Positions 3,958 through 41,751 of a DNA stretch of 64,000 nucleotides are shown here, one piece after another; within the stretch, counting starts at the first letter, position 1; each line of letters starts with the position of its first letter. The notes beneath the pieces were generated by a model. The model made no database searches. It was not told the DNA's origin and saw only the letters and a program-made list of their open reading frames with translations. The translations under genes and the position numbers were made by a program. Source of the DNA: Chloroflexota bacterium (GTDB taxonomy: Bacteria; Chloroflexota; Anaerolineae; Anaerolineales; Villigracilaceae); assembly GCA_021414245.1 (NCBI GenBank), contig JAIOOU010000011.1:123881-187880 (forward strand), read 5' to 3'.

Positions 3958-6036
<2,079 letters not shown>

Positions 6037-30230: not shown

Positions 30231-30431
30231 TTATTTATCGTCGTCGGCCAGCGAGCCGATCGCGCGCAGTAGGCCAAAGATCAACAGGCCCAGCTTGAGT
30301 CCCTCGCCCGTGGTCAGGGCGGTTTCGCGGTCGTGCTTTTCAGCGCGCCGCGTGAGCAGTGTGGCCGCGATCAGGCCGGTCACAGCGCCGACTAGGGCGC
30401 CGCCGATGATGACTTTCTGTTTGTTGTTCAT
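30231..30431 (-). CDS. Small hypothetical membrane protein
   Basis: 66 aa, two hydrophobic helices, ATGA overlap with the upstream gene. Confidence 0.7.
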   Translation of the reverse strand: MNNKQKVIIGGALVGAVTGLIAATLLTRRAEKHDRETALTTGEGLKLGLLIFGLLRAIGSLADDDK

Positions 30432-30853
30432 GGGGTGATCCTTCCAAAAAATGCCACAACGTTTTCAATGAACCCGTTCAGCGCGATCACGGGTTTGACG
30501 ACCATATCTGCCGCGCGCAGGATGTATCCGCGCGCAATATAGACATAATCCTGGGCCAGGCCGGTATAGGTCGGCAGCAGGCCAAGCAGGCGCGCCATCA
30601 GGTAAATGAGCCCAACCAGCACCGCCAGCACGATCAGGCCCGCGATCAAAATCGGGATGATGATCCAGATCGTGGAGATGGCTGCCCAGCGGCCCACGTC
30701 CCCACCCGAGGTGAACGTGGACAGGCTGATCAGCACGATCAAGCCGATCATCAACAAAACCACGAGGACCATCGGCAGGATGATCTGGGTCACGCGCTGC
30801 TTGCGGTGGACTTGATGGGAGTAATGTTCGCGGATGGGAAGCTGGGGTTTCAT
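30428..30853 (-). CDS. Hypothetical membrane protein
   Basis: 141 aa with two long hydrophobic helices. Confidence 0.75.
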   Translation of the reverse strand: MKPQLPIREHYSHQVHRKQRVTQIILPMVLVVLLMIGLIVLISLSTFTSGGDVGRWAAISTIWIIIPILIAGLIVLAVLVGLIYLMARLLGLLPTYTGLAQDYVYIARGYILRAADMVVKPVIALNGFIENVVAFFGRITP

Positions 30854-30901
30854 TGTTTCTATTTTAGCATAAACGGAAAAGCGGGTTTTGTTTGCATGCT
30901 T

Positions 30902-32050
30902 CTATGGCACCAAAAGCGCAATGATCTGCTTCACGATGGGCACTACGGCCGGCAGGACGAAGGCCAGATTGAGGGCGGCCTTCTTCAAGCCCTCCGCGGT
31001 GATCTGGACCGTGGCCGGGTTGGGTTTGTCCTTGGCCGCGGTCTGCACCAGCATGTGTGCGGTGTCGGCCACAGCCTTGGCATCCTCGGCCTTGTCCTCG
31101 GGCGATTTGCTCAACACATCGTCGAGCTGCTGGATCAATCCGGCCAGGGCCTGCTTGGTGGGCTCGTCAAAGGCGGAACTGCCGGAGATTGTCATGGCCA
31201 CATCCTTGAGCGTGGACTTGACCGGCACATTGGCGCCGCGAAAATCGCCGGACATGTGAATCACATCGCCCATGATCTGGTCGCCTTCGACCACGGTCAT
31301 CGGGTTCCTGCCCATGAAGACCAGGATCCTGCGCGCGCTTTCCTTTTCCTTCGGGTCTGCGGAAAGCAGGAGCGGACCCAGTTTACGGTCCACGGTTTCA
31401 GGCACGAGATTGCTCCAGATCACGGAGAGTTGTTCGAGGGCGCCGGCCGAGGCGGTGTTCAGGATCAAATGGGTCAACTGTTTGGAGAAGGCTTCGATAT
31501 CGTCCATGTCGCGGAAGACCATCACATCCAGGGCCAGGGCCACGAATTCGTCGTCCACCAGGCCGCCTTCGATCAGTTCCTTCAACGGCACGAGGATGGC
31601 CATGCCCCTTTCCTTGGTTTTGAGAAATTCTTTTCTCTCCTCGAGGTTCATGTCGTAGTTGGGCTGGCGGCTGCGGATCTCGCGCAGGGCGCCGTCCACG
31701 GTTTTGGAGGCGATGTTGAAATCGGGCCACAACAGATTCACGATGCGGAATTTTTGGCGGGCGGGGATCTTCTTGGAGGCCGTGGTCTGCGAGAGTATCT
31801 TTTCCCGGGCGGTGCCCTTCACCTTTTGCAGAAGTTCCTGACCTTCGGCCGCGGATAATTCCAACAAGGCCTGAACCAGTCTCGGCCTGAGGCTGGCGAT
31901 CTCTTCGGATGAAAGCACCGCATCGTGCGTGTCCGAGCCTGCCAGGCCCCACGAGCCGGAGACGTAATTTTCAGCGGCTTCCGCCATTTCCAATTCGGCG
32001 GCCTTTGCCTCGATCTGCGCCAGGATCCCAACCACATTTTGTATCGGCAT
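30902..32050 (-). CDS. Hypothetical alpha-helical protein
   Basis: 382-aa ORF with genome-typical codon usage; C-terminal module begins GDVIHMSGDFRGA. Confidence 0.7.
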   Translation of the reverse strand: MPIQNVVGILAQIEAKAAELEMAEAAENYVSGSWGLAGSDTHDAVLSSEEIASLRPRLVQALLELSAAEGQELLQKVKGTAREKILSQTTASKKIPARQKFRIVNLLWPDFNIASKTVDGALREIRSRQPNYDMNLEERKEFLKTKERGMAILVPLKELIEGGLVDDEFVALALDVMVFRDMDDIEAFSKQLTHLILNTASAGALEQLSVIWSNLVPETVDRKLGPLLLSADPKEKESARRILVFMGRNPMTVVEGDQIMGDVIHMSGDFRGANVPVKSTLKDVAMTISGSSAFDEPTKQALAGLIQQLDDVLSKSPEDKAEDAKAVADTAHMLVQTAAKDKPNPATVQITAEGLKKAALNLAFVLPAVVPIVKQIIALLVP

Positions 32051-33039
32051 TATGCACTCCCTGCATTGGTGCGCGCGGCCATCTCTTCGACCCGCGGCGC
32101 GACTTCGTTGATATAGAGTTCGACCATTTCCATGTCATAGGGCGCGGCCAGGCTTAATACAAAATGACCGGCCCCGCACGCGACGTATTTCATCAGTTGT
32201 TCGGCGGCCTGCTGCGGGGTGCCCATCAGCACACGTCCGCGCAATTCTTCGACATTCGTGTTCCAGGCCTGCGCCAGCGCTTCCGCCCGGCGCCGGGCCG
32301 TGTCTTCGTCCCTGGCGATCACGCTCGGGAAGTGGATCATCCTGCGGATTAAGGATGAATCGCGCCCGATGCGCTGACAATGCCCAGAGAGCACGTCCAG
32401 TTTGTGATTATACACATCCAGGGGCAGCATATCCATATCCCAGCCGTCGGCCTGTTCGGCCACGATGCGCAGGGTGACCTTTTCGCCCTGCCCGCCGATC
32501 CAGATGGCCGGGGCCGGCTTTTGGACCGGCTTGGGTTCACAGCGCGCATCGGTAAGGTGGAAGTGGCGGCCTTGAAAGTCGCTAACCTCCTGCGTCCACA
32601 GGCTGCGTATGACCTGCACGGCTTCATCGAGCTGCGCGAGCCTTTCGCCGGTGTTCGGGAAGGGCATGCCGTACGCCAGGCTTTCGGCTTCGAACCAGCC
32701 CGCGCCGATGCCCAGTTCCAGCCGCCCGTTGGTGACCACGTCCAGCGTGGCGCCCATCTTGGCCAACAGGGCTGGATGGCGGTAGATCACGCCGGTGACC
32801 AGACAGCCGACGTGCAGCTTTTGGGTTTGCGCGGCCAGCGCCGTCAGCAGGGTCCAGCCTTCGAAGCACGGGCCGCTGCGTTCGCCGGTGATGGGCATGA
32901 AATGGTCGAAGAGCCAGGCCGAGTCATAGCCGAGCGCGTCGGCGCGCTGCCAGAGTTGAAGCAGTTCGCCGTAGGTGACATGCTGGGGCGAGCTTTGCAG
33001 GCCCCATTTCAATTGGGATGTTGCGGCGGGTTGGGACAT
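32050..33039 (-). CDS. LLM-class (likely F420-dependent) oxidoreductase
   Basis: DSAWLFDHF, YRHPALLAKMGATLDVVTNGRLELGIGAGW, IWIGGQGEK. Confidence 0.93.
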   Translation of the reverse strand: MSQPAATSQLKWGLQSSPQHVTYGELLQLWQRADALGYDSAWLFDHFMPITGERSGPCFEGWTLLTALAAQTQKLHVGCLVTGVIYRHPALLAKMGATLDVVTNGRLELGIGAGWFEAESLAYGMPFPNTGERLAQLDEAVQVIRSLWTQEVSDFQGRHFHLTDARCEPKPVQKPAPAIWIGGQGEKVTLRIVAEQADGWDMDMLPLDVYNHKLDVLSGHCQRIGRDSSLIRRMIHFPSVIARDEDTARRRAEALAQAWNTNVEELRGRVLMGTPQQAAEQLMKYVACGAGHFVLSLAAPYDMEMVELYINEVAPRVEEMAARTNAGSA

Positions 33040-33127
33040 TGCAGTCCATTATAAAGGACCGCGGGAAATAAATGGTCCCCGGCGGGAAGTTGCGGGGGCA
33101 TTCACAGGGGCATGCGTTTGAGACAAT

Positions 33128-33483
33128 TTACCTAAGGATCCTGAAATTTGAGATCCAAAAGACCCAATCGATCTCCTGCGTATCGCGGTTTGCGCCCAGC
33201 CACCTGATGAACAGGTCCACCACACTTCCATTCACTGCTTCCTTCTGCAGGTCTGGCAGAAGCGGCTCCTGGATCGGCATCCAATATTCAGCAGTTCCTT
33301 CCGCGAACAGGCATTCATGTTTACTCATATCCACATACGTGTCGAGCTGTCCGGGGTCAGTTGCAAACGCCCACATGGACAACAGGGCCGTGCGGCTCTC
33401 CAGGATATCCCTGCAGGCGCACAGGCGCTTATTAGAAATAAAGTCAGAATGGTCAGTTGGGTTTTTTGGAAAATAGTATTCAT
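33128..33483 (-). pseudogene. Frameshifted or internally deleted lipoprotein gene
   Basis: ATG 33483 gives MNTIFQKTQLTILTLFLISACAPAG (lipobox) and stops after 52 codons; a protein-like C-terminus (...EYWMPIQEPLL...WVFWISNFRILR*) is in another frame; span 356 nt. Confidence 0.55.
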
Positions 33484-33540
33484 GTTGTCGTTTTCCTGAT
33501 CGGTACAACACCCGGCGGCCGGTAACAGCCGCCAGCCAGG

Positions 33541-33963
33541 TTACCCGCCTGCTTCGGACGGGTTCATGGCTTGAAACAAGGTGACTTGCGTGCCGTCCGG
33601 GTCCTGCAGGCGCACGTTGTGATCGCCCCACGGGGTGACCACCGGCTCGTGCACCAGGGTCGCGCCGTGGGCCAGCAGGCGCCCCATGGCGGCCTGCAGA
33701 TCCGGGACCTGCAACGCAAAGCGGACCTGGCCGCTGACACGCCGCCCGGCTTCGATGGTGTCGATGGTCTCGGCCTGGGTCTCGTCGAAGACCTCGAGCG
33801 TGGCGCGGCCCATATCGAGGATCAGGGCCTGGCCCTGGCCATTGTCCCAAATGGCAGCGGGCTCGAGGCCGAGGCCCTGGCAGTAGAATTTCACCAACCG
33901 TTCATAATCGCCGGTCGTGATCGCGACGCGCAGTTCCAGCACGGAGGGGGTGGGGGTGGACAT
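33541..33963 (-). CDS. VOC/glyoxalase family protein
   Basis: DYERLVKFYCQGLGL, TPWGDHNVRLQDPDG; start revised to MSTPTPS. Confidence 0.9.
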   Translation of the reverse strand: MSTPTPSVLELRVAITTGDYERLVKFYCQGLGLEPAAIWDNGQGQALILDMGRATLEVFDETQAETIDTIEAGRRVSGQVRFALQVPDLQAAMGRLLAHGATLVHEPVVTPWGDHNVRLQDPDGTQVTLFQAMNPSEAGG

Positions 33964-34014
33964 ATATCCTGGGTTTCCTTTCGTTATTGTTCTACCTGTA
34001 ATGTGATTCAACTT

Positions 34015-34392
34015 TTATTTTATGAATTTTCCAACTGCCCTGTTGACCGAGTATCCCACTGCGAAACTTGCCCCAATGGCACACAGCAGGCCCGCCAGGG
34101 TCCCAAAACGCGGGGTGGTATATGAATTTGCCAACAGACCAGCAAGTCCGCCGAGGAAGAGGATCAGCACAAGGCTGGCGAGCAGGATCACGATATCCCT
34201 GGCAATTTTTAGGCGCGGGTTTTCAGATTGTCGATGTTTTTTGAAAATGGAGGAAATGGTCACGCCCAGGCTGAAAAGCAGCAGGGCGGTCCCCACCAGC
34301 GGCAGGAAGGCGGGGAACTGCCAGTACGTGAAGATCAAGACCGCAAGCGAGAAAAATACAAATATTTTCATATCCATATACCTCCAGATCAT
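34015..34392 (-). CDS. Hypothetical membrane protein, copy A
   Basis: Four hydrophobic helices; paralog of 37020-37406; true start probably 34377 or 34371. Confidence 0.75.
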   Translation of the reverse strand: MIWRYMDMKIFVFFSLAVLIFTYWQFPAFLPLVGTALLLFSLGVTISSIFKKHRQSENPRLKIARDIVILLASLVLILFLGGLAGLLANSYTTPRFGTLAGLLCAIGASFAVGYSVNRAVGKFIK

Positions 34393-34397
34393 TTCCC

Positions 34398-34422
34398 TGT
34401 GTCATCCTGAGCGAAGGTTCTC
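34398..34422. repeat. REP-like element, half copy in inverted orientation
   Basis: tgtgtcatcctgagcgaaggttctc is the reverse complement of the 26.7 and 28.85 kb motif. Confidence 0.55.
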
Positions 34423-34587
34423 CGCTCCTATTTCCGAGACTATCAGCAACATAGCGCCGAACGCACAAAGTCCCCGAAGCGCAGTAGAGTGGGAGTGCGG
34501 TGCAAGTGTCCGTTGCAATGAACGCTTTCAGAGTGGCACAATATTTTTCGGGAAGCATACGTCCTTGTGCAAGATAAGCCCGGTTGA

Positions 34588-35511
34588 CTACTGCTCAACT
34601 CTAAATTCATCTTCATAAAAGCATCTTTTTTCTTGTTTGTCGAATAAATCATATATTCCCTGCGGATCTAATTTTATTTTATCATCGTAAAAAGACAAGC
34701 TGAAATTCTTATTGAAACTTCCCCGGGCAAATTCAATTATATTTAATTTCTGATCTGCAGGATTGGCCAGTGCGATGCTAAAAGAACTAACATCCCCATC
34801 ACCTATAGCTGGACACAGTATATATTTATCATTATCAGCAAGCTTCGCAGCTCCAGGATAAATCGCCATAATTTTTTCGTCGCTATACACGATTTCAATA
34901 TTGTATGCATTCTGAGTTTGGTGGACGCGAGGCGGATTTAGATATATCAAATCGGGCACACCATGGCGACGAAAAAGTTCCAAAATACCGTAGCGATCAA
35001 GTAAATTATTTTTCACATTACTTGTCTGATCAGGATTAATTACAGACTGGAAATTTACAATAAATCCATTCAGCATCTCATTAGAGGATTGAATATATAA
35101 ATGAAAAAAAACATGGAGATCTCCCTGCTTGGTATCAAAATTTGGAGAGTAATGCCATTGATAAGGGGAAACCACACTAACATCATAGGCCAGCAATCTA
35201 TGGTCACGAGTATAAATTTGAAAGTAGGATAGTGCCTGACCTAAAGTAGTTTTGCCGGGATATATGCCTAAAAAACACGGCAGTTCGCAATTACCGTTAG
35301 TACGCAAAAGTTCAAAAAGCTTGTTTTGGATTTCAGCAGGCAAGGTTGGATAGGCAGTTGGCATTAAGAGATTCGTAGAAGCAGGGCCGGTAGGAAGGAC
35401 AAAGGCTTGAACGGCAGTTTCCGTGCTTTTTTCTGCATAAGATTTGCAGGAGAAAAGTATAACAATGAAAGTTATCAAAAAGAGTTTTTGTGTTTTCATA
35501 TCATTTTCCAA
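34588..35511 (-). CDS. Hypothetical lipoprotein with a CxxPCFxGIxPG motif
   Basis: ILFSC lipobox, CELPCFLGIYPGKTT; AT-rich. Confidence 0.75.
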   Translation of the reverse strand: MENDMKTQKLFLITFIVILFSCKSYAEKSTETAVQAFVLPTGPASTNLLMPTAYPTLPAEIQNKLFELLRTNGNCELPCFLGIYPGKTTLGQALSYFQIYTRDHRLLAYDVSVVSPYQWHYSPNFDTKQGDLHVFFHLYIQSSNEMLNGFIVNFQSVINPDQTSNVKNNLLDRYGILELFRRHGVPDLIYLNPPRVHQTQNAYNIEIVYSDEKIMAIYPGAAKLADNDKYILCPAIGDGDVSSFSIALANPADQKLNIIEFARGSFNKNFSLSFYDDKIKLDPQGIYDLFDKQEKRCFYEDEFRVEQ

Positions 35512-35665
35512 ACATACTCTTCAATATCCGGTCCATTTCTTGTCTCCTAGCGTCACCACTTAGATCATTTGCCGGCTCATGGCCTTCATTAACTACACGA
35601 TGGTATACGAAATAAAAGCAGAGTGATTGATATAGATTTACAAGAAGTGATTTGTCCATCAGTAG

Positions 35666-36412
35666 CTATCGAAATTTGTCAAACAACCCACAAAAAGTGA
35701 CAAGGAAGAATATGCTATTTATCGATTGGATAAATAGTGCTGAATTAAAAAGCATGCGATCCCCTCTTTTGTATCCCCATTTGAAAGCTACATAGACAAA
35801 AAAAACTGAGGCAAGAAGATATGAGAATACAAATAGATATGGACTGCCAGCTATTAAGAGAAAAATTATTAGTAGCCATAGCAACCGGACAGATAAATAC
35901 CTAGAAAAAGTAATAAAAAACCTGTAGAGTGTTCTCCGAGTAGATGGCTTTGCCATTGTGAGATATTGTTGAGCAGATTTGAAATCTTTTTGCGAAGCAT
36001 ATGCTTTTGCAATATCAAGGATCAAATCATTATTCGGAGAAAGTTCTAAAGCGTTTCTATAAAATAAAACAGCATCACTATATTTACGCTCCAGCAAGGA
36101 AATATTGGCTAACACCCAATAAGAAAAAAAAGATTTTCCATGCTTTTCCAAGGCTTTTTCTGCAAGAGATTTGGCAACATCGAATTCTCGCAGAGAGAAA
36201 TGGATTAAAGATTCCGCTTCTGCAACGACAGGGCAGTCGTGGGCAGGTTGAGTCTGGCCAGCGGTGTTTAATATTTCCTGGGCCTCAGCTATTTCGTTTC
36301 TTGCCGCGCGAAAAAGTGCAACACAGCAAAATTCGTGACCCTCTGCTCCCTCTAAATCTTTAAGTCTCAATGTTTCATCTTTTAAACAAATTCTTTCATA
36401 AAGACTATTCAT
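35666..36412 (-). CDS. TPR-repeat protein with C-terminal TM helices
   Basis: KYSDAVLFYRNALELSPNN TPR signature; hydrophobic C-terminus. Confidence 0.75.
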   Translation of the reverse strand: MNSLYERICLKDETLRLKDLEGAEGHEFCCVALFRAARNEIAEAQEILNTAGQTQPAHDCPVVAEAESLIHFSLREFDVAKSLAEKALEKHGKSFFSYWVLANISLLERKYSDAVLFYRNALELSPNNDLILDIAKAYASQKDFKSAQQYLTMAKPSTRRTLYRFFITFSRYLSVRLLWLLIIFLLIAGSPYLFVFSYLLASVFFVYVAFKWGYKRGDRMLFNSALFIQSINSIFFLVTFCGLFDKFR

Positions 36413-36495
36413 TTTCCGCCTCGTGTAATTATGAAAATCGTTTCAACAATCTTCTCCAACAGAGTTTTCCATTGGTGCATCAAATCATTTCAATC

Positions 36496-36533
36496 ATCGC
36501 GACGCGCAGTTCCAACACAGAGGGGTGGGGGTG
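36496..36533 (-). repeat. Remnant copy of the 5' end of the VOC gene
   Basis: atcgcgacgcgcagttccaacacagaggggtgggggtg vs 33920-33958: two substitutions and a 1-nt deletion. Confidence 0.8.
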
Positions 36534-36587
36534 TTTTCAAAGTCATCTATCCCTATCTAAACTGCAAATACAGTGCTCGAACATAAA

Positions 36588-36923
36588 TCACATCTTCTTA
36601 GCTTCGAGTCGACGTATTTCCTCTGCAGTCTTAAGACGAAATTGCATGCTACCTCCAAGCCATTGAGTTAAAAACTGTTTGGCTTGCTCAATAGCATTTT
36701 CTTCATTTTCTGCATCTGCTACTGGAAGCTGAACTCTCGTTGGATAAACAATAAAGTACAACTTTTTCTGGTTATGATTATATTGAAAAGTATATGCTTT
36801 TTTTCTTTCGTTCAATCCCCACTCTCTAATTAAGCAAACAATGCTAATACACCCGGGAATAGATGCATGATCAGGACGGTAAGAAATTTCGAGAAACTCA
36901 AGTAATTCTATTTCTGAAGTCAT
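36588..36923 (-). CDS. Hypothetical protein
   Basis: 111-aa AT-rich ORF in the cassette; no recognised motif. Confidence 0.55.
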   Translation of the reverse strand: MTSEIELLEFLEISYRPDHASIPGCISIVCLIREWGLNERKKAYTFQYNHNQKKLYFIVYPTRVQLPVADAENEENAIEQAKQFLTQWLGGSMQFRLKTAEEIRRLEAKKM

Positions 36924-37019
36924 ATGTAAAACATCCTAGGGGGTTGCAAAAGGTTCATGAATCACTGTTCGTGAAATCCCCGCTGCCAGTCTCCTTGCGA
37001 TACCTGTTCATTTGTATCA

Positions 37020-37406
37020 TTAGCTCAAGAATTTCCCCGCTCCCTTTTTGACCCAATACCCGACCGCGAAACTTGTCCCGATGGCACAGAGCAGTCCTGT
37101 CAGGGTTCCAAAGTGCGGGGTGATAAGGGAATTTGCATACAATCCTGCCTGCCAGCCCAGGAAGAGGATAAGCACAAGGGTGGCAAGCAGCGTCGCGATA
37201 TCCCTGGCTATTTTCAGGCGTGGGTTTTCAGACTCTTGATGATTCTTAAAAATGGACGAAATGGTCACGGCCAGGCTGAAAAGCAGCAGGGCGGTCCCGA
37301 CCAGCGGCAGAAAGGCGGGGAATTGCCATAAGGAAAAGAAAACAACAAAAATAAACAGAAGTAGTAATAAGCCTAAGTATTTTTTAAACAAAAATATTAT
37401 TGTCAT
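37020..37406 (-). CDS. Hypothetical membrane protein, copy B
   Basis: Shares WQFPAFLPLVGTALLLFSL...SENPRLKIARDI with copy A. Confidence 0.75.
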   Translation of the reverse strand: MTIIFLFKKYLGLLLLLFIFVVFFSLWQFPAFLPLVGTALLLFSLAVTISSIFKNHQESENPRLKIARDIATLLATLVLILFLGWQAGLYANSLITPHFGTLTGLLCAIGTSFAVGYWVKKGAGKFLS

Positions 37407-37408
37407 GG

Positions 37409-38134
37409 TTATTTTTTCAACAACTCCTCAAACCCGAGTTCTCTTTCTGCTTGCTCTTTCCGCTTAAGATGTTCAGGATTAGTATTATCAAAAGGCTCTT
37501 CCTGTAACACTATCATGATGCCATTATTCACTTCTTCTTTCGAGAAACAGGTTGTTAATTTGTCAAAACGCTTTCGTCCTATCATATCTAGGTATTCCGC
37601 ACCAAAATATGTTAGCCAGTCCAGTTCAAGCCGATAGCTTCCCTTCGCCGGTCTTTTATAAGTTTTAGTTCGCAAGAAACTTACCCCTCCATTAGGTTCA
37701 GGAATCTCTATCAAGTGATCATCGCACAAATAGGCTTGTCCAATTGCCATTCCGAAAACACCTTCCTTCAAGAGCGTAACAACATCGTCAAGCGTACATA
37801 CTGAGTCTTGAATATGTTTGGCAGTAAAACCAATTACCAAAACACTTGGCCCAAGACTATTCGAAGGCAAAGCTGAAGCGGAAAACTGTAGCCCATTCTC
37901 CGGGTATAAGTATAAAGGAATTCTGCCTGTCTCATTCGAAATATCTTCTTTGGGTATAAGGGCTGACGAAAACTCGCCTGAATTAAATAAAAATTTTTCC
38001 TCTGTCTTATTTTTGCCCAGATACATCTTTGAAGGAAAAACTAGTTTAGAAACGGTCTTATTTTTAAAAACGTTATCAAACATTCCAATGGATTGTGGTT
38101 CAAAAGACCAAATAACGCACGAATATGTTTTCAT
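37409..38134 (-). CDS. Cognate immunity protein, Imm52-like
   Basis: 24 bp after the toxin; C-terminal LDWLTYFG...IGRKRF...GIMIVLQEEPFD pattern. Confidence 0.65.
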   Translation of the reverse strand: MKTYSCVIWSFEPQSIGMFDNVFKNKTVSKLVFPSKMYLGKNKTEEKFLFNSGEFSSALIPKEDISNETGRIPLYLYPENGLQFSASALPSNSLGPSVLVIGFTAKHIQDSVCTLDDVVTLLKEGVFGMAIGQAYLCDDHLIEIPEPNGGVSFLRTKTYKRPAKGSYRLELDWLTYFGAEYLDMIGRKRFDKLTTCFSKEEVNNGIMIVLQEEPFDNTNPEHLKRKEQAERELGFEELLKK

Positions 38135-38158
38135 AAAAACTCCTACTATAGTTACAAT

Positions 38159-41100
38159 TTAAGGTACCCACTTAACTGTTATAGCACCAAAATCGTTTGC
38201 ATTGAGAAATTTTTGCAATTGTCGCGCAGCATCTTTATCAGACACCCACCATTCTATTTCCGTGAATTGGCTGGTAGCATCTAATGCTTTTAGTTGCCGG
38301 GCGGCTTCGTCAAGCAATTTATCTTTAATACCCTGTTGCCATGATGCATTAAGATCTAATTTATAACCGTTACCGTCAGCAAATTTAGCATCAATTAATG
38401 TATCACCTTTATACCAATCAAATGCCACCTCCCCGCTTGGAGTGTCTACATCTTTTATCAAAATTTCTAAATTTCGATAAGGTCTGTCAGTTACACGTAC
38501 TTCATAATCTAATGCGTTTTGTTTCTTCGTTCTCCCATATGTATATTCTATACCTGGTTTTTCAGGTACAGAATCTCCAACTTTAGGTATGTTATTGCTA
38601 CCATCTCCTCTGATCTGTAGGGGATTATTTATATTATTCCATACAACTGCCCCACCATGTCCACCAACTATAAGTCCACCCACTGCTGCAGCCCCTTCCA
38701 CTGCCAATGCAACTCCCCCTACCCCAAAACATAAAATTGCCCCGGGTCCAGTTGCGGCAGCGCAGGCAGCAGCCCCACCAGTTGTTGGCGGGATAAGGCT
38801 AAAGCTACTTGCAAATAATGCTCCGCCAACAGCCATTTCAATTTGACCAACCACCTTACTTATGATACGTCCTGCTTCACGCCCATCCTGATAGAATTCA
38901 TTTCCGTTCTCTGGTTTCCATCCCATAACCCAACCGTACAATCCCATAGTGTAATCATTGATGAATTGTGTTCTTACCCCACTTAAATAAGAGACTATGT
39001 TTTTTGTTAAATTTACTATCTTCGAATCAGACACATATTTTTCAGAGTAATCAGATTGGGTATTTGAATAAAGCAACTCAACTGGGGTCTTAATTGGAGG
39101 AGGTAGTAAATCTACCCAGCCGGGCTTTCCATAGAGAAAACTAGATGAAGTAGATGGTGCCGCCCACTCATCGATAAAATTGTTCCACGACTGTTTTCCT
39201 TTATTAATCAGGTTCTCCCACCACTTCGGCGGGTCATCATCTTTGGCAGGCATAGCCAGCACCTTGGCGGCTGCGGTCTGTTTTTCCTGTTGGGCTTTCC
39301 AGGCGTCCACCATAGCTTGATCTCCATCGTGTTCACTCATGCGATGGTCAAAGGCGGCTTGCTCTCTTTCCTTTTGAGCAGCCAGATACCTGGCCTCTTC
39401 GGCCGCATCCTCCCTGGCCAATTTGGCTTCGATGGCCGCCGCATGGTCTTTCGCTGTTGCGAGTTCAGCGGCTTTCCGGGCGTCCAGGGCAGCTTGATAG
39501 GCACGGTTGATGCGGTCATATTCGACCTGCTTTTCACGCCGTTCCTGTTGTTTTGCCTGGGCTCGGGCACGCTGCTCTTCTTCACGTTTCTTTTGCCAGT
39601 CTGCCAGTGTGGCACCCACTAACGCCGCGGCTGCGGCTCCCCACAGGATATTGCCAGTCTGTTGATTTGATACCGGCACTGTGGCGGAGTCCACGCCAAA
39701 TTTGATGGAGGCGCTGTCTTTGGTGAGTGGGGCAGAGTGGGTTGTGTTGCCCGAAGTGGAAGTATCCGTTTGCGGCGGGACGGAGGAGGCACCGGTCTGC
39801 CCGCCGAAGCTGGAGGCAGGTGTCGGGAGGGAGGAAGCGGGGGTGGGATCCCCTTCAGGATGATCTGGAAGACTGGCGACTAATAAAGAGGAAAGCAGGT
39901 CCACTTCCACTGTGGTTCGCCCTCTGGCTTCGTTGCCTGCCTGGTCAAAGATCTTCACGACCATATCATATTCCCCGGGCGGGACCTGCCTGCCTTTCGA
40001 ATCCCTGCCATTCCAATATAACTCTGAAGTGATGCTGGCTCCAAAAAGTCCATCGGTGTAATTTCGACCTTCCACACGTGTGCTGGCATAGGCAAGTCCG
40101 CTGCCATGGTCTTCGGCATTGTAATAGGCAGGTTCACCCAAGTTCCATGAGGAAGGCAAATGGAGCGTGGGAGCAATCGTGTCGATTTGGACTTGTTGGG
40201 GACCCGTGTCGGTGCACAAGCCAGCTTTGTCGCAGGCAATCAGTTGATACGAATGCAGGCCTTCGCCTGTGAAAGATATGGGTCCCTGCACAGAGGACCA
40301 GCTTGCGCCATTATCCAAACTTTGCAACAGACTGTCGATCCCGGAACCGGCATCACTTGCATTGGCAGTCACTTGAACCGCGGAGGTATACCAGTTGTTC
40401 TGTCCCAGGTCTCCGAGGAAGGAAAGGGTAAGGGTGGGAGTGGTGGTGTCCACGTTGAAATTGCGGGTTTCATCCGAGCACAGCCCGGCCCGGTCACAGG
40501 CGGTGACGTGCACCTGCCAGATCCCGTCCGCGAGGGTAATCGAGGCGCAGTCAGTGGCGGCACTATTGACTTCACAGGTCAACGAAGCCAGACCCGAACC
40601 CGCATCGGAAGCCGAGGCATTGAATTGAACCGGTGAGATCCGCCAGCCATTATTCCCGGGTGTGCTTGTGGCGCTGATGGTGATGAGAGGCGTGGTGGTA
40701 TCCACGGAAAAACTTTGTGTGGAGGTTTGAGCACCCCAGCCGGCTTGGTCCGTTGCACGGAAGAGAAGGGTGTAATCCCCATCGTTGAAGTCCAGTGGAC
40801 TGCTGACGGAGGACCAACTCCCGCCGTTATCCAGTGAATATTCAAAAGACTGGACTCCGGAAGCAGCATCGGAGGCAGAGGCCGAAACCGTTACAGTGGA
40901 GATGTAATAGTTGTCGGCGCCAGACGTCCCGAGCAGAGAGGCGTTGATCTGTGGAGTGCTCAAGTCGAGGGTGTAGGAAGTCGATCCGGTCGCGAACAAG
41001 CCGGTGGCGGAGTCGACACGATAGCTGATCGTACCCGCGCCTTCGCTTGTAATGGGAATCGAGCAGGAGGTCGCTGCGTTGGGACAGGCAAAGGGGGTGC

Positions 41101-41581
41101 CATTCAAGATCCCGGAGATGAGGACAGAGGCTCCCTGGGGATCGGAGGCGCTCAGGTTCAACGTCAGGGAGCCGGTGCACCAACTGTTGTTGCTTTGCGC
41201 GCAGTTCAGTACCCCGGAGATTGTCGGCGGTTCGGTTGGGGTCGGGTCCACGCAATCCGGATCACATTGGATTTCCCAGGACAGACAACAGCCGATATCC
41301 CAAGGATTGGTTTTGCTCGGGCAGCCGGGTTCCCCCAGGGCGATCCACTTTGTGCAGACATTGATCTTGCAGGCGTTCGAGCAATTCGGGGCTTTTGCGT
41401 CCACGGCGGTGACCAATGTAATCCGGCCATATTCCTGCAAGGGTTCCCCGCTTGATCTGGATATTTCAGAGGCATTGAGAGCCGGGTACAACCAGATCAG
41501 GACTGCGATCAATAATGCAAGAAAGACCCGGATGGGTTCAAATCGAACAAGGGTCCTTCTTAGTGAGTTGAGGAGTCTCAT
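38159..41581 (-). CDS. Polymorphic toxin: signal/TM, Cys-rich domain, Ig-like repeats, FlgD-like Ig, coiled coil, hydrophobic pre-toxin segment, REase-fold (Tox-REase-5-like) tip
   Basis: Repeats DTTTP...GxN(G/N)W...ASDAGSG; YWNGRDSKGRQVPPGEY; tip FDWYKGDTLIDAK...EAARQ...IEWWV...ITVKWVP; start revised to ATG 41581 (AGGAGG SD). Confidence 0.75.
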   Translation of the reverse strand: MRLLNSLRRTLVRFEPIRVFLALLIAVLIWLYPALNASEISRSSGEPLQEYGRITLVTAVDAKAPNCSNACKINVCTKWIALGEPGCPSKTNPWDIGCCLSWEIQCDPDCVDPTPTEPPTISGVLNCAQSNNSWCTGSLTLNLSASDPQGASVLISGILNGTPFACPNAATSCSIPITSEGAGTISYRVDSATGLFATGSTSYTLDLSTPQINASLLGTSGADNYYISTVTVSASASDAASGVQSFEYSLDNGGSWSSVSSPLDFNDGDYTLLFRATDQAGWGAQTSTQSFSVDTTTPLITISATSTPGNNGWRISPVQFNASASDAGSGLASLTCEVNSAATDCASITLADGIWQVHVTACDRAGLCSDETRNFNVDTTTPTLTLSFLGDLGQNNWYTSAVQVTANASDAGSGIDSLLQSLDNGASWSSVQGPISFTGEGLHSYQLIACDKAGLCTDTGPQQVQIDTIAPTLHLPSSWNLGEPAYYNAEDHGSGLAYASTRVEGRNYTDGLFGASITSELYWNGRDSKGRQVPPGEYDMVVKIFDQAGNEARGRTTVEVDLLSSLLVASLPDHPEGDPTPASSLPTPASSFGGQTGASSVPPQTDTSTSGNTTHSAPLTKDSASIKFGVDSATVPVSNQQTGNILWGAAAAALVGATLADWQKKREEEQRARAQAKQQERREKQVEYDRINRAYQAALDARKAAELATAKDHAAAIEAKLAREDAAEEARYLAAQKEREQAAFDHRMSEHDGDQAMVDAWKAQQEKQTAAAKVLAMPAKDDDPPKWWENLINKGKQSWNNFIDEWAAPSTSSSFLYGKPGWVDLLPPPIKTPVELLYSNTQSDYSEKYVSDSKIVNLTKNIVSYLSGVRTQFINDYTMGLYGWVMGWKPENGNEFYQDGREAGRIISKVVGQIEMAVGGALFASSFSLIPPTTGGAAACAAATGPGAILCFGVGGVALAVEGAAAVGGLIVGGHGGAVVWNNINNPLQIRGDGSNNIPKVGDSVPEKPGIEYTYGRTKKQNALDYEVRVTDRPYRNLEILIKDVDTPSGEVAFDWYKGDTLIDAKFADGNGYKLDLNASWQQGIKDKLLDEAARQLKALDATSQFTEIEWWVSDKDAARQLQKFLNANDFGAITVKWVP

Positions 41582-41715
41582 GAATTTCCTCCTGATGTGC
41601 AATGAGACAACTACTTTTTTCCCGTGATGTGCTTCGTTGTTACGCGGCTATCTCTAAAGTATTTCTGACATTTTACAAGAATTTAAATCCTTTTTCAATA
41701 GGGATTTCCCCTAAA

Positions 41716-41751
41716 TATAAAAGACCCCACAGGCTAAGCCTGTGGGGTCTT
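41716..41751 (-). terminator. ftsZ terminator
   Basis: aagaccccacaggc/gcctgtggggtctt followed by a minus-strand T-run. Confidence 0.75.

Follow-up and report, generated by a model that had tools for sequence, protein, structure and literature searches.

The 64,000-nucleotide stretch of DNA analysed here (the window; contig JAIOOU010000011.1 of assembly GCA_021414245.1, positions 123,881 to 187,880) comes from a Chloroflexota bacterium of the class Anaerolineae. It encodes a large protein, hereafter the toxin (38159..41581; coordinates are those of the window, and features lie on its minus strand unless stated otherwise), that ends in a nuclease-like tip. We consider it likely that the toxin and the genes behind it form a polymorphic toxin locus of an Anaerolineae-type bacterium, in which a carrier (residues 1 to ~800), exported and held at the cell surface, has received an imported cassette encoding a nuclease, its immunity protein, and a small protein with four transmembrane segments (4-TM). 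The toxin gene is an intact open reading frame (ORF) of 1140 amino acids when read from the ATG at 41581 and 1147 amino acids from the TTG at 41602. The database copy (P0003) is an identical protein that begins at the ATG at 41581, and the gene is present in a single copy in the genome.

The homologs of the toxin share its N-terminal part and differ in what follows. We found 95 matches among 5.8 billion proteins, and the nearest named ones are from Anaerolineales and other Chloroflexi. Around 38 of these 95 align with the toxin from residue ~20 to residues 800-812 and no further (BLAST). A near-invariant Ala-rich segment (N-[ILV]-L-W-G) followed by KKREEE is common to 36 family members, and most members have a WWE motif 140-190 residues after it, beyond which the sequences diverge. 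The C-terminal 220 residues of the 29 longer members fall into 9 unrelated clusters, and a shorter member (P0060) ends in Ntox44 with a score above the cut-off (44.2 bits). The alignments thus describe a polymorphic toxin family, with a conserved N-terminal carrier, breaks at residues 800-812, and unrelated tips (at least nine tail clusters plus Ntox44). The gene downstream differs by tip type across the loci of the family. As judged by homology, tip-specific immunity genes are accompanied by orphan modules, which include toxin C-termini at two other loci (L011 and L031) and immunity homologs in the window itself. An earlier note on this DNA had called the protein a polymorphic toxin and proposed to compare the C-termini of its N-terminal relatives; these turned out to be variable rather than invariant, and the claim stands. 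The mid-region of the carrier was found in 4 of the 9 genomes searched from the window's GTDB family (its own included) and nowhere else among 301 genomes of the class, which is a lower bound because this search scores few candidates per genome; searches of metagenomes found many more members.

Other observations concern the diversity of the family. One dominant tail type, with no match in Pfam, is shared by 21 of the 29 long members in their C-terminal ~200 residues (P0006, P0010, P0013, P0028, P0035, P0045, P0052, and others) and may be an undescribed toxin domain. It often ends in A-G-Y-x-F-x-F-D...N-S-Y-I-L..P or G-N-S-W and comes after helical repeats of the YGDD type and long, Gly-rich stretches that are hydrophobic. 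In the congener G079 (contig C9, locus L027, 7828-12340), the family toxin appears to be split into ORFs of 848, 135, and 440 amino acids with stops inside the match, and may be a decaying copy. The metagenome contig L002 has a second Big_13-type Ig toxin-like gene (3983-5332), whose start lies ~1.3 kb past the 4-TM gene of the first cassette; the presence of two such genes on one contig shows that genes of the family can stand in tandem.

The carrier is built of successive modules. It starts with an Arg-rich n-region and a hydrophobic helix (41462..41581; residues 17-47, Kyte-Doolittle [KD] hydropathy 2.62), which from its composition would be a Sec-type signal or a signal anchor. A Cys-rich module follows (41198..41425; 9 Cys in residues 74-134), and then an Ig-like stalk (39908..41197) made of Big_13 (E 2.1e-16) and OmpL47-type (E 1.9e-28) repeats, both over the curated cut-offs of Pfam and NCBIfam, in which an ASDxxSG motif recurs at residues 243, 331, 415, and 496. 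The FlgD-like Ig domain of the earlier note can be placed at the end of the stalk, although its Pfam match (FlgD_ig) remains below threshold (16.9 bits for a cut-off of 27). The stalk is followed by a linker rich in Pro, Ser, and Thr (39668..39907; together 44% of residues 565-645), by the Ala-rich hydrophobic segment with its N-I-L-W-G start and KKREEE end (39599..39652; residues 651-668, KD 1.58, a marginal hydrophobicity), and by a charged, probably helical spacer (39224..39598; 38% charged residues in 662-800), along which homologs align to residue ~810 and for which a coiled coil is suggested by composition only. The WWE motif (39215..39223) marks the junction where family-wide homology ends and low-GC DNA starts. 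Beyond it lie a pre-toxin region with a Gly/Ala-rich hydrophobic stretch (38642..39205; Gly and Ala are 47% of residues 925-990) and the tip, a putative PD-(D/E)xK nuclease resembling Tox-REase-5 and TseT (38162..38605; from a sub-threshold Pfam match, an alignment, and the fold of a model). No match to RHS/YD, TPS, haemagglutinin, PAAR/VgrG, LXG/WXG100, or HINT was found in the toxin with Pfam and NCBIfam, and the mid-region of the carrier has no match in Pfam, NCBIfam, or PHROGs (for residues 560-830, none in Pfam even at E ≤ 5). Composition and the Pfam and NCBIfam matches thus recover every module that had been listed from the letters (signal, Cys-rich domain, Ig repeats, linker, hydrophobic segment, charged region, Gly/Ala-rich stretch, tip, and adjacent gene), together with the reported lack of RHS/YD, haemagglutinin, LXG/WXG, PAAR, VgrG, and HINT motifs.

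The end of the carrier is also a break in DNA composition. The GC content falls from 0.57-0.61 upstream to 0.43 and below at ~39300, close to the WWE codons (39215-39223), and remains at ~0.37-0.47 down to ~34500. The coincidence of the homology break with the GC break is what one expects from an import of the last ~350 codons together with the genes that follow, and the sequence indicates that they were imported, as a low-GC cassette. Residues ~800-1147 are 38% identical to the last ~350 residues of the toxin of L002, where the order of pre-toxin region, tip, immunity gene, and small transmembrane gene recurs. The Gly-rich pre-toxin region also precedes related tips in other proteins (P0103, P0105, P0108, P0109, P0114) and is absent from family members with other tips (e.g., P0004, P0007, P0012). 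Since it is common to L002 and to the tip relatives, and is missing with other tips, the Gly/Ala-rich region belongs to the cassette and not to the carrier. Neither residues 800-1000 nor five related pre-toxin regions have a Pfam match at E ≤ 5, including PT-TG (PF14449), for which we have a weak Atlas lead (0.81). Two orphan modules of the family were seen elsewhere: at L011 (4992-7549), a toxin C-terminal fragment that starts in the hydrophobic motif is followed by an immunity-like gene and a 4-TM gene, and at L031 (5022-7021), a fragment beginning 33 residues upstream of that motif precedes a TPR gene. Because these orphan C-termini start in or just before the hydrophobic motif, upstream recombination is possible there as well as at WWE.

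For the tip (residues 985-1147), only 25 relatives were found among 1.84 billion representative proteins (HMMER). The alignment of 23 tip sequences has invariant FD, D, and K (of DxK) residues, invariant or nearly invariant R-Q and E-W pairs, and Q and W conserved in at least 90% of the sequences. The signature residues of the tip are Y1033, F1061-D1062-W, D1071-A-K1073, Q1103, and W1118. The published signature of Tox-REase-5 consists of Y, FDG, EAK, Y, Q, and W (PMC3482391), and by these residues the tip carries it, in the variant forms FDW and DAK. The Pfam profile of Tox-REase-5 (PF15648) matches residues 1031-1122 over nearly its whole length (profile positions 2-94 of 95), with a score of 19.7 bits for a cut-off of 25 (E 0.0013). 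One relative of the tip (P0127) passes this profile at 36.8 bits and two others are just under the cut-off. The AlphaFold2 model of the tip (predicted local distance difference test [pLDDT] 93.6) has PA3907/TseT as its two best matches in the PDB (Foldseek): 9oz0_B (E 8e-4, query TM-score [TMq] 0.66) and 7dym_A (E 3.6e-3), each at probability 1.00. The match that follows is ~100-fold weaker (E 0.097). The model therefore predicts a TseT-like PD-(D/E)xK fold. No PDB sequence was matched significantly in a profile search with the aligned tips (best E 0.023, an unrelated match), so that TseT was found by fold only, and PHROGs gave nothing of note for the tip, the immunity protein, or the 4-TM proteins. 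Related tips occur behind a WXG100 domain, the signal of the type VII secretion system (T7SS), in P0117 (Pfam), and behind segments that, in sequences read by eye, look RHS-core-like (P0113, P0116) or HINT-like (P0125), which shows that this tip circulates among established toxin carriers. The PD-(D/E)xK tip of the Tox-REase-5 kind that had been proposed is thus upheld by the signature, the P0127 match, and the TseT fold, with the Pfam match of the tip itself under threshold.

The gene that follows the toxin (37409..38134) begins 24 bp past its stop codon, behind AGGAG, and encodes a putatively cytoplasmic protein of 241 amino acids without a signal peptide. Model and gene order point to an immunity protein with a TsiT/TsiV-like fold. 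The protein has no Pfam or NCBIfam match at E ≤ 0.1, including Imm52 (PF15579), for which there is only an Atlas feature lead (0.91). It has only five homolog clusters, two of which have loci that could be read. In L002, the homolog lies 17 bp after the toxin with the related last ~350 residues and is followed by a related small membrane protein; in L006 (Okeania, a cyanobacterial contig), it follows a tip fragment of 109 amino acids. The immunity gene is thus directly behind a Tox-REase-5-type tip in independent loci (the window, L002, and L006). The best of five models of the protein (pLDDT 87) matches the immunity proteins PA0821 (7drg_B, E 8.7e-6) and TsiT (7dym_B, E 1.1e-4) with TM-scores of 0.53-0.56 (Foldseek), and these are its only PDB matches at E ≤ 0.001. 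PA0821 and TsiT are immunity proteins of PD-(D/E)xK nucleases of type VI secretion systems (T6SS), and TseT is a Tox-REase-5 T6SS nuclease (PMC9635880). Two independent models, of the tip and of the 241-amino-acid protein, therefore match both chains of one crystal complex (7DYM). By its modelled fold, the protein would be a TsiT/TsiV-like immunity protein, predicted to neutralise the tip. The pairing of Tox-REase-5 with Imm52 suggested by the earlier note is borne out in fold and gene order and not in the Pfam models of either family: the search with hidden Markov models that it recommended gave a full-length, sub-threshold match for Tox-REase-5 and no match for Imm52.

The cassette closes with a small 4-TM gene (copy B, 37020..37406; 128 amino acids) that starts 2 bp after the immunity stop codon. 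A second copy (copy A, 34015..34392; 69% protein and 81% DNA identity to copy B) closes an array of orphan genes further downstream. Homologs that are 30-45% identical stand at the end of the loci of P0004 (L007), P0006 (L010), P0007 (L011, in two copies), and L002, and homologs also close two toxin loci of G079. The 4-TM family has 106 clusters, and all three Chloroflexi members that we sampled (L036, L037, L038) close toxin-immunity loci. Two more copies, not counted among these closing genes, are present in the congener G183. The gene or genes between the toxin and the 4-TM gene vary from locus to locus, and by these comparisons no partner of the carrier family other than the 4-TM gene is conserved. 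Among the 301 genomes of the class it was found only in the window's genus, which is again a lower bound. The protein has no holin or other family match of note in Pfam, NCBIfam, or PHROGs, and its Atlas leads are below 0.9. Archaeal homologs were seen in a Methanosarcinaceae contig (L039, 5953-6357) and in Woesearchaeota (P0194), with no recognisable Ig-toxin adjoining; the neighbourhood of the L039 homolog includes genes for a TIR-domain protein and a DDE transposase. The closing 4-TM gene, the proposed recombination at WWE, and the place of the Gly-rich region in the cassette had all been missed in the first reading of this DNA, whose interpretation is partly supported.

We propose that new tips would arrive by recombination between the end of the carrier (at WWE or at the hydrophobic motif) and the 4-TM gene. 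After export by Sec, the toxin would stay attached to the cell surface through its N-terminus, and its C-terminal half would be presented outside by the Ig stalk. The surface display and contact dependence put forward in the earlier note are putative. In this cassette, the Gly-rich hydrophobic region would carry the nuclease across the membrane of the target cell, the tip would cut the DNA of that cell, and the immunity protein would bind the tip and so protect the producer and its kin. For the Ala-rich segment and the 4-TM protein, help in export, membrane insertion, and general protection are all possible.

An exported, stalk-presented C-terminal half is favoured by two lines of evidence, the immunity candidates of sister loci and the marginal hydrophobicity of the mid-segment. 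Several of the sister-locus candidates that are predicted lipoproteins have PD40 or beta-propeller matches; such lipoproteins are found at L007, L011, L036, L038, both G079 loci, G119, and among the orphans of the window itself. If immunity is provided by lipoproteins, the cognate tips act outside the cytoplasm, and the C-terminus of the family must leave the producer. The mid-segment has ~16 hydrophobic residues, and its rough insertion-energy sum is +1.8 to +6.8 across the family (median +3.5), compared with about 0 or negative for the N-terminal helices (median -1.3); these sums use an approximate scale with no position weighting, which counts against leaning on them and makes them indicative only. 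The lipoproteins with faint PD40/Tricorn matches have 326-397 amino acids and stand behind P0004- or P0007-type tips (L007:11574-12767, L011:3361-4341, L036:7778-8971, L038:7806-8984).

The very high conservation of the Ala-rich segment suggests that it has a specific role, perhaps to insert into a membrane, to oligomerise, or to pair with the 4-TM protein. We also envisaged that the Ala-rich segment, the charged spacer, and the 4-TM gene make up a Chloroflexota toxin delivery route, of which we found no description, independent of the type V secretion system (T5SS), T6SS, T7SS, Rhs, and PrsW, a tentative proposal that we hold to be rather doubtful. On such a route, the Ala-rich segment could behave like a fusion peptide and insert into the membrane of the neighbour, or the 4-TM partner could move the C-terminal half of the toxin out of the producer. 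In a further reading, which we find unlikely, the 4-TM protein would be dedicated to export or release, either in the manner of a holin or by partnering the hydrophobic segment, and would form with the toxin a self-contained two-component route; such a role is compatible with either topology of the toxin. It would agree with the 4-TM gene being the only partner conserved at loci whose tips and immunity genes are unrelated, with its close translational coupling to the immunity gene, and with a carrier segment far more conserved than a plain anchor requires. Yet the lack of a holin or other family match, the G119 loci in which no such gene was found, and the archaeal homolog locus without a recognisable toxin all speak against it, and the 4-TM gene could just as well provide general immunity at the membrane or simply serve as the downstream anchor for recombination.

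Three known routes were considered and rejected for this toxin. A sortase-type sorting signal at the mid-segment does not fit an internal segment in a family that lacks any LPXTG-like motif; sortases are encoded in the genome, with no link found. Release by PrsW was set aside because the toxin has no PrsW domain and the nearest of the three PrsW genes of the genome is ~38 kb away. This gene, for a PrsW-type membrane peptidase, lies ~300 bp left of the window start (G000:C10:123093-123578), and nothing links it to the toxin locus. The T7SS was dismissed because the genome has no WXG100 match above the cut-off. These searches, with those of Pfam, NCBIfam, and the gene neighbourhood, agree with the initial statement that the toxin has no known delivery signature and no secretion genes nearby.

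Several results weigh against an exported nuclease with a matched immunity protein as we propose it. The tip does not pass the Tox-REase-5 model of Pfam, nor does the 241-amino-acid protein pass that of Imm52. The immunity fold was read from the one model in five that reaches pLDDT 87 (the others are at 65-67), built on a 6-sequence alignment and matched with TM-scores of ~0.53-0.56. No 4-TM gene was found at three G119 loci. A hydrophobic pre-toxin region and cytoplasmic immunity are imperfectly matched across loci: at L010 (P0006), the immunity candidates are cytoplasmic, but no region of strong hydrophobicity passes the threshold. Finally, the hydrophobic segment followed by KKREEE resembles a classical stop-transfer anchor, in which case the nuclease would stay in the cytoplasm of the producer. 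This last point leads to a different topology, that of a type I membrane protein with the Ig repeats outside, the hydrophobic segment across the membrane, and the spacer and nuclease inside the producer, where the immunity protein keeps the nuclease in check. The effector would then be freed by regulated proteolysis or lysis, and be either self-directed (abortive or kin-policing) or released when the cell bursts. The conserved basic-acidic cluster directly after the segment, the absence of a signal peptide in the immunity protein, and the absence of export machinery genes near the toxin are in line with it, as is the distribution of Cys: all 18 Cys of the ectodomain lie before residue 463 or at it, none is in residues 464-946, and the next two sit in the Gly-rich region. 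We nevertheless judge it improbable. The tips of sister loci are paired with lipoprotein immunity candidates and must act outside the cytoplasm, the segment is short, is rich in Ala, and has an insertion energy that is positive by the rough estimate, related tips are borne by exported weapons (a WXG100 toxin and, by eye, RHS- and HINT-type toxins), and orphan cassettes that include immunity genes are a typical feature of toxins that act between cells. The worry of the earlier note that the tip could face the producer cytoplasm is thus a real one, while the evidence from the family leans towards an exported C-terminus. A reading of the toxin as an adhesin, or as an envelope protein of the S-layer kind, with a C-terminus that merely resembles a nuclease and with unrelated neighbours is largely refuted and highly improbable, because, although Big_13/OmpL47 Ig-like repeats are typical of adhesins and the Pfam toxin match is sub-threshold, the catalytic signature does not vary among the aligned tips, two independent models match the two chains of the TseT-TsiT complex, the adjacency of tip and immunity gene recurs in unrelated loci, and C-termini are swapped across the family.

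Among known systems, the best structural match of the 241-amino-acid protein is TsiV (PA0821, PDB 7DRG), which confers immunity to a PD-(D/E)xK nuclease toxin (PMC9635880). PA0821 has 361 amino acids, is 10% identical to our protein, and protects from a toxin (TseV) that is of the VRR-Nuc type and not of the TseT type. Another close system is TseT-TsiT of Pseudomonas aeruginosa (PA3907-PA3908, T6SS; PDB 7DYM and 9OZ0), which is alike in the fold of the tip, in the FD..[DE]AK/Q/W signature, and in having the immunity gene directly downstream. The identities are low (17-19% for the tip, 10-12% for the immunity protein), and the locus in the window differs in having no PAAR, T6SS, or chaperone context, in the Sec-signal Ig carrier of a probable monoderm, and in the Gly-rich hydrophobic region before the tip. 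Tip and immunity protein are thus a divergent pair of the TseT/TsiT kind, and the carrier is a new version of the polymorphic-toxin theme.

Junction motifs are a feature of other polymorphic toxins, with PxxxxDPxGL in Rhs and VENN in CdiA, the equivalent in this family being WWE. To our knowledge, the closing small 4-TM gene has no counterpart in Rhs loci or in those of contact-dependent growth inhibition (CDI). The loci of Rhs and CdiA (framework in PMC3482391) resemble the one studied here in their conserved carrier, sharp junction motif, and unrelated, swappable tips with their own immunity genes, and also in the displaced orphan modules downstream and the atypical GC content of the cassette. 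Here, in contrast, there are no YD/RHS repeats, no TPS domain, no CdiB, and no marker of T5SS, T6SS, or T7SS, and the carrier combines Ig repeats with a hydrophobic, Ala-rich segment and a helical spacer that is charged. Tox-REase-5 tips have been described as exported by Sec-dependent (type II secretion system, 'T2SS'), T5SS, T6SS, and PrsW routes, with Imm52 as partner (PMC3482391). The Sec-dependent toxins of that study share with ours a Sec-type N-terminus and a Tox-REase-5 tip; Chloroflexi are not listed there for Tox-REase-5, and the study has neither a carrier with Ig repeats, hydrophobic segment, and coiled spacer nor a closing membrane gene. In the literature that we searched, no paper links Anaerolineae with polymorphic toxins, and the delivery route of the carrier is covered neither by this literature nor by the family libraries searched.

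Downstream of the active cassette, the sequence indicates that positions 34015-36923 are an orphan immunity array, made of older immunity genes and the second 4-TM copy. It contains an ORF of 111 amino acids between cassette remnants (36588..36923; no Pfam or NCBIfam match), a 36-bp scar that copies the 5' end of a VOC/glyoxalase gene (36496..36531, no strand assigned; 89% identical to 33920-33955), and two orphan immunity-like genes. The first of these encodes a protein with TPR matches and a C-terminal transmembrane segment (35666..36412), of which a 28%-identical homolog lies behind the orphan toxin C-terminus in the congener G119 (L031). The second encodes a predicted lipoprotein of 307 amino acids with the lipobox LFSC (34588..35511), assigned from the context of its homolog, a 27.6%-identical lipoprotein encoded between the family toxin and the 4-TM gene in G079 (contig C9, L027).

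The whole toxin locus is part of an insertion of ~10.8 kb between ftsZ and the next conserved gene (30874..41718, no strand assigned) that is absent from three congeners. In these (G079, G119, G183), the homolog of ftsZ abuts the homolog of window positions ~30250-30873, which makes the ~10.8 kb specific to this genome. The same interval holds high-GC genes for a luciferase-like monooxygenase, a VOC/glyoxalase protein, and a 382-amino-acid ORF without family, and no integrase or tRNA was seen in it among the ORFs scanned. Of the two flanks, examined over ~12 kb each, one contains the dcw cluster (mraY to ftsZ) and the second contains housekeeping genes. No secretion genes occur within this distance, as had been noted from the letters. 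A meaningful position after ftsZ was rejected, as homologs are found in unrelated contexts and the three congeners lack the insertion there.

Chloroflexota are abundant filamentous bacteria of sludge, sediments, and mats, and little has been reported on how they fight or recognise each other. The locus in the window is a clean and intact example of a carrier family without known delivery signature that behaves like Rhs and CDI systems in its sharp junction, in its imported tips and the immunity genes that match them, and in its orphan arrays. The TseT/TsiT-like identity of the toxin-immunity pair makes it a tractable entry point, and the carrier with its 4-TM gene offers a way to learn how a monoderm-type cell presents and delivers a nuclease without a dedicated secretion machine.

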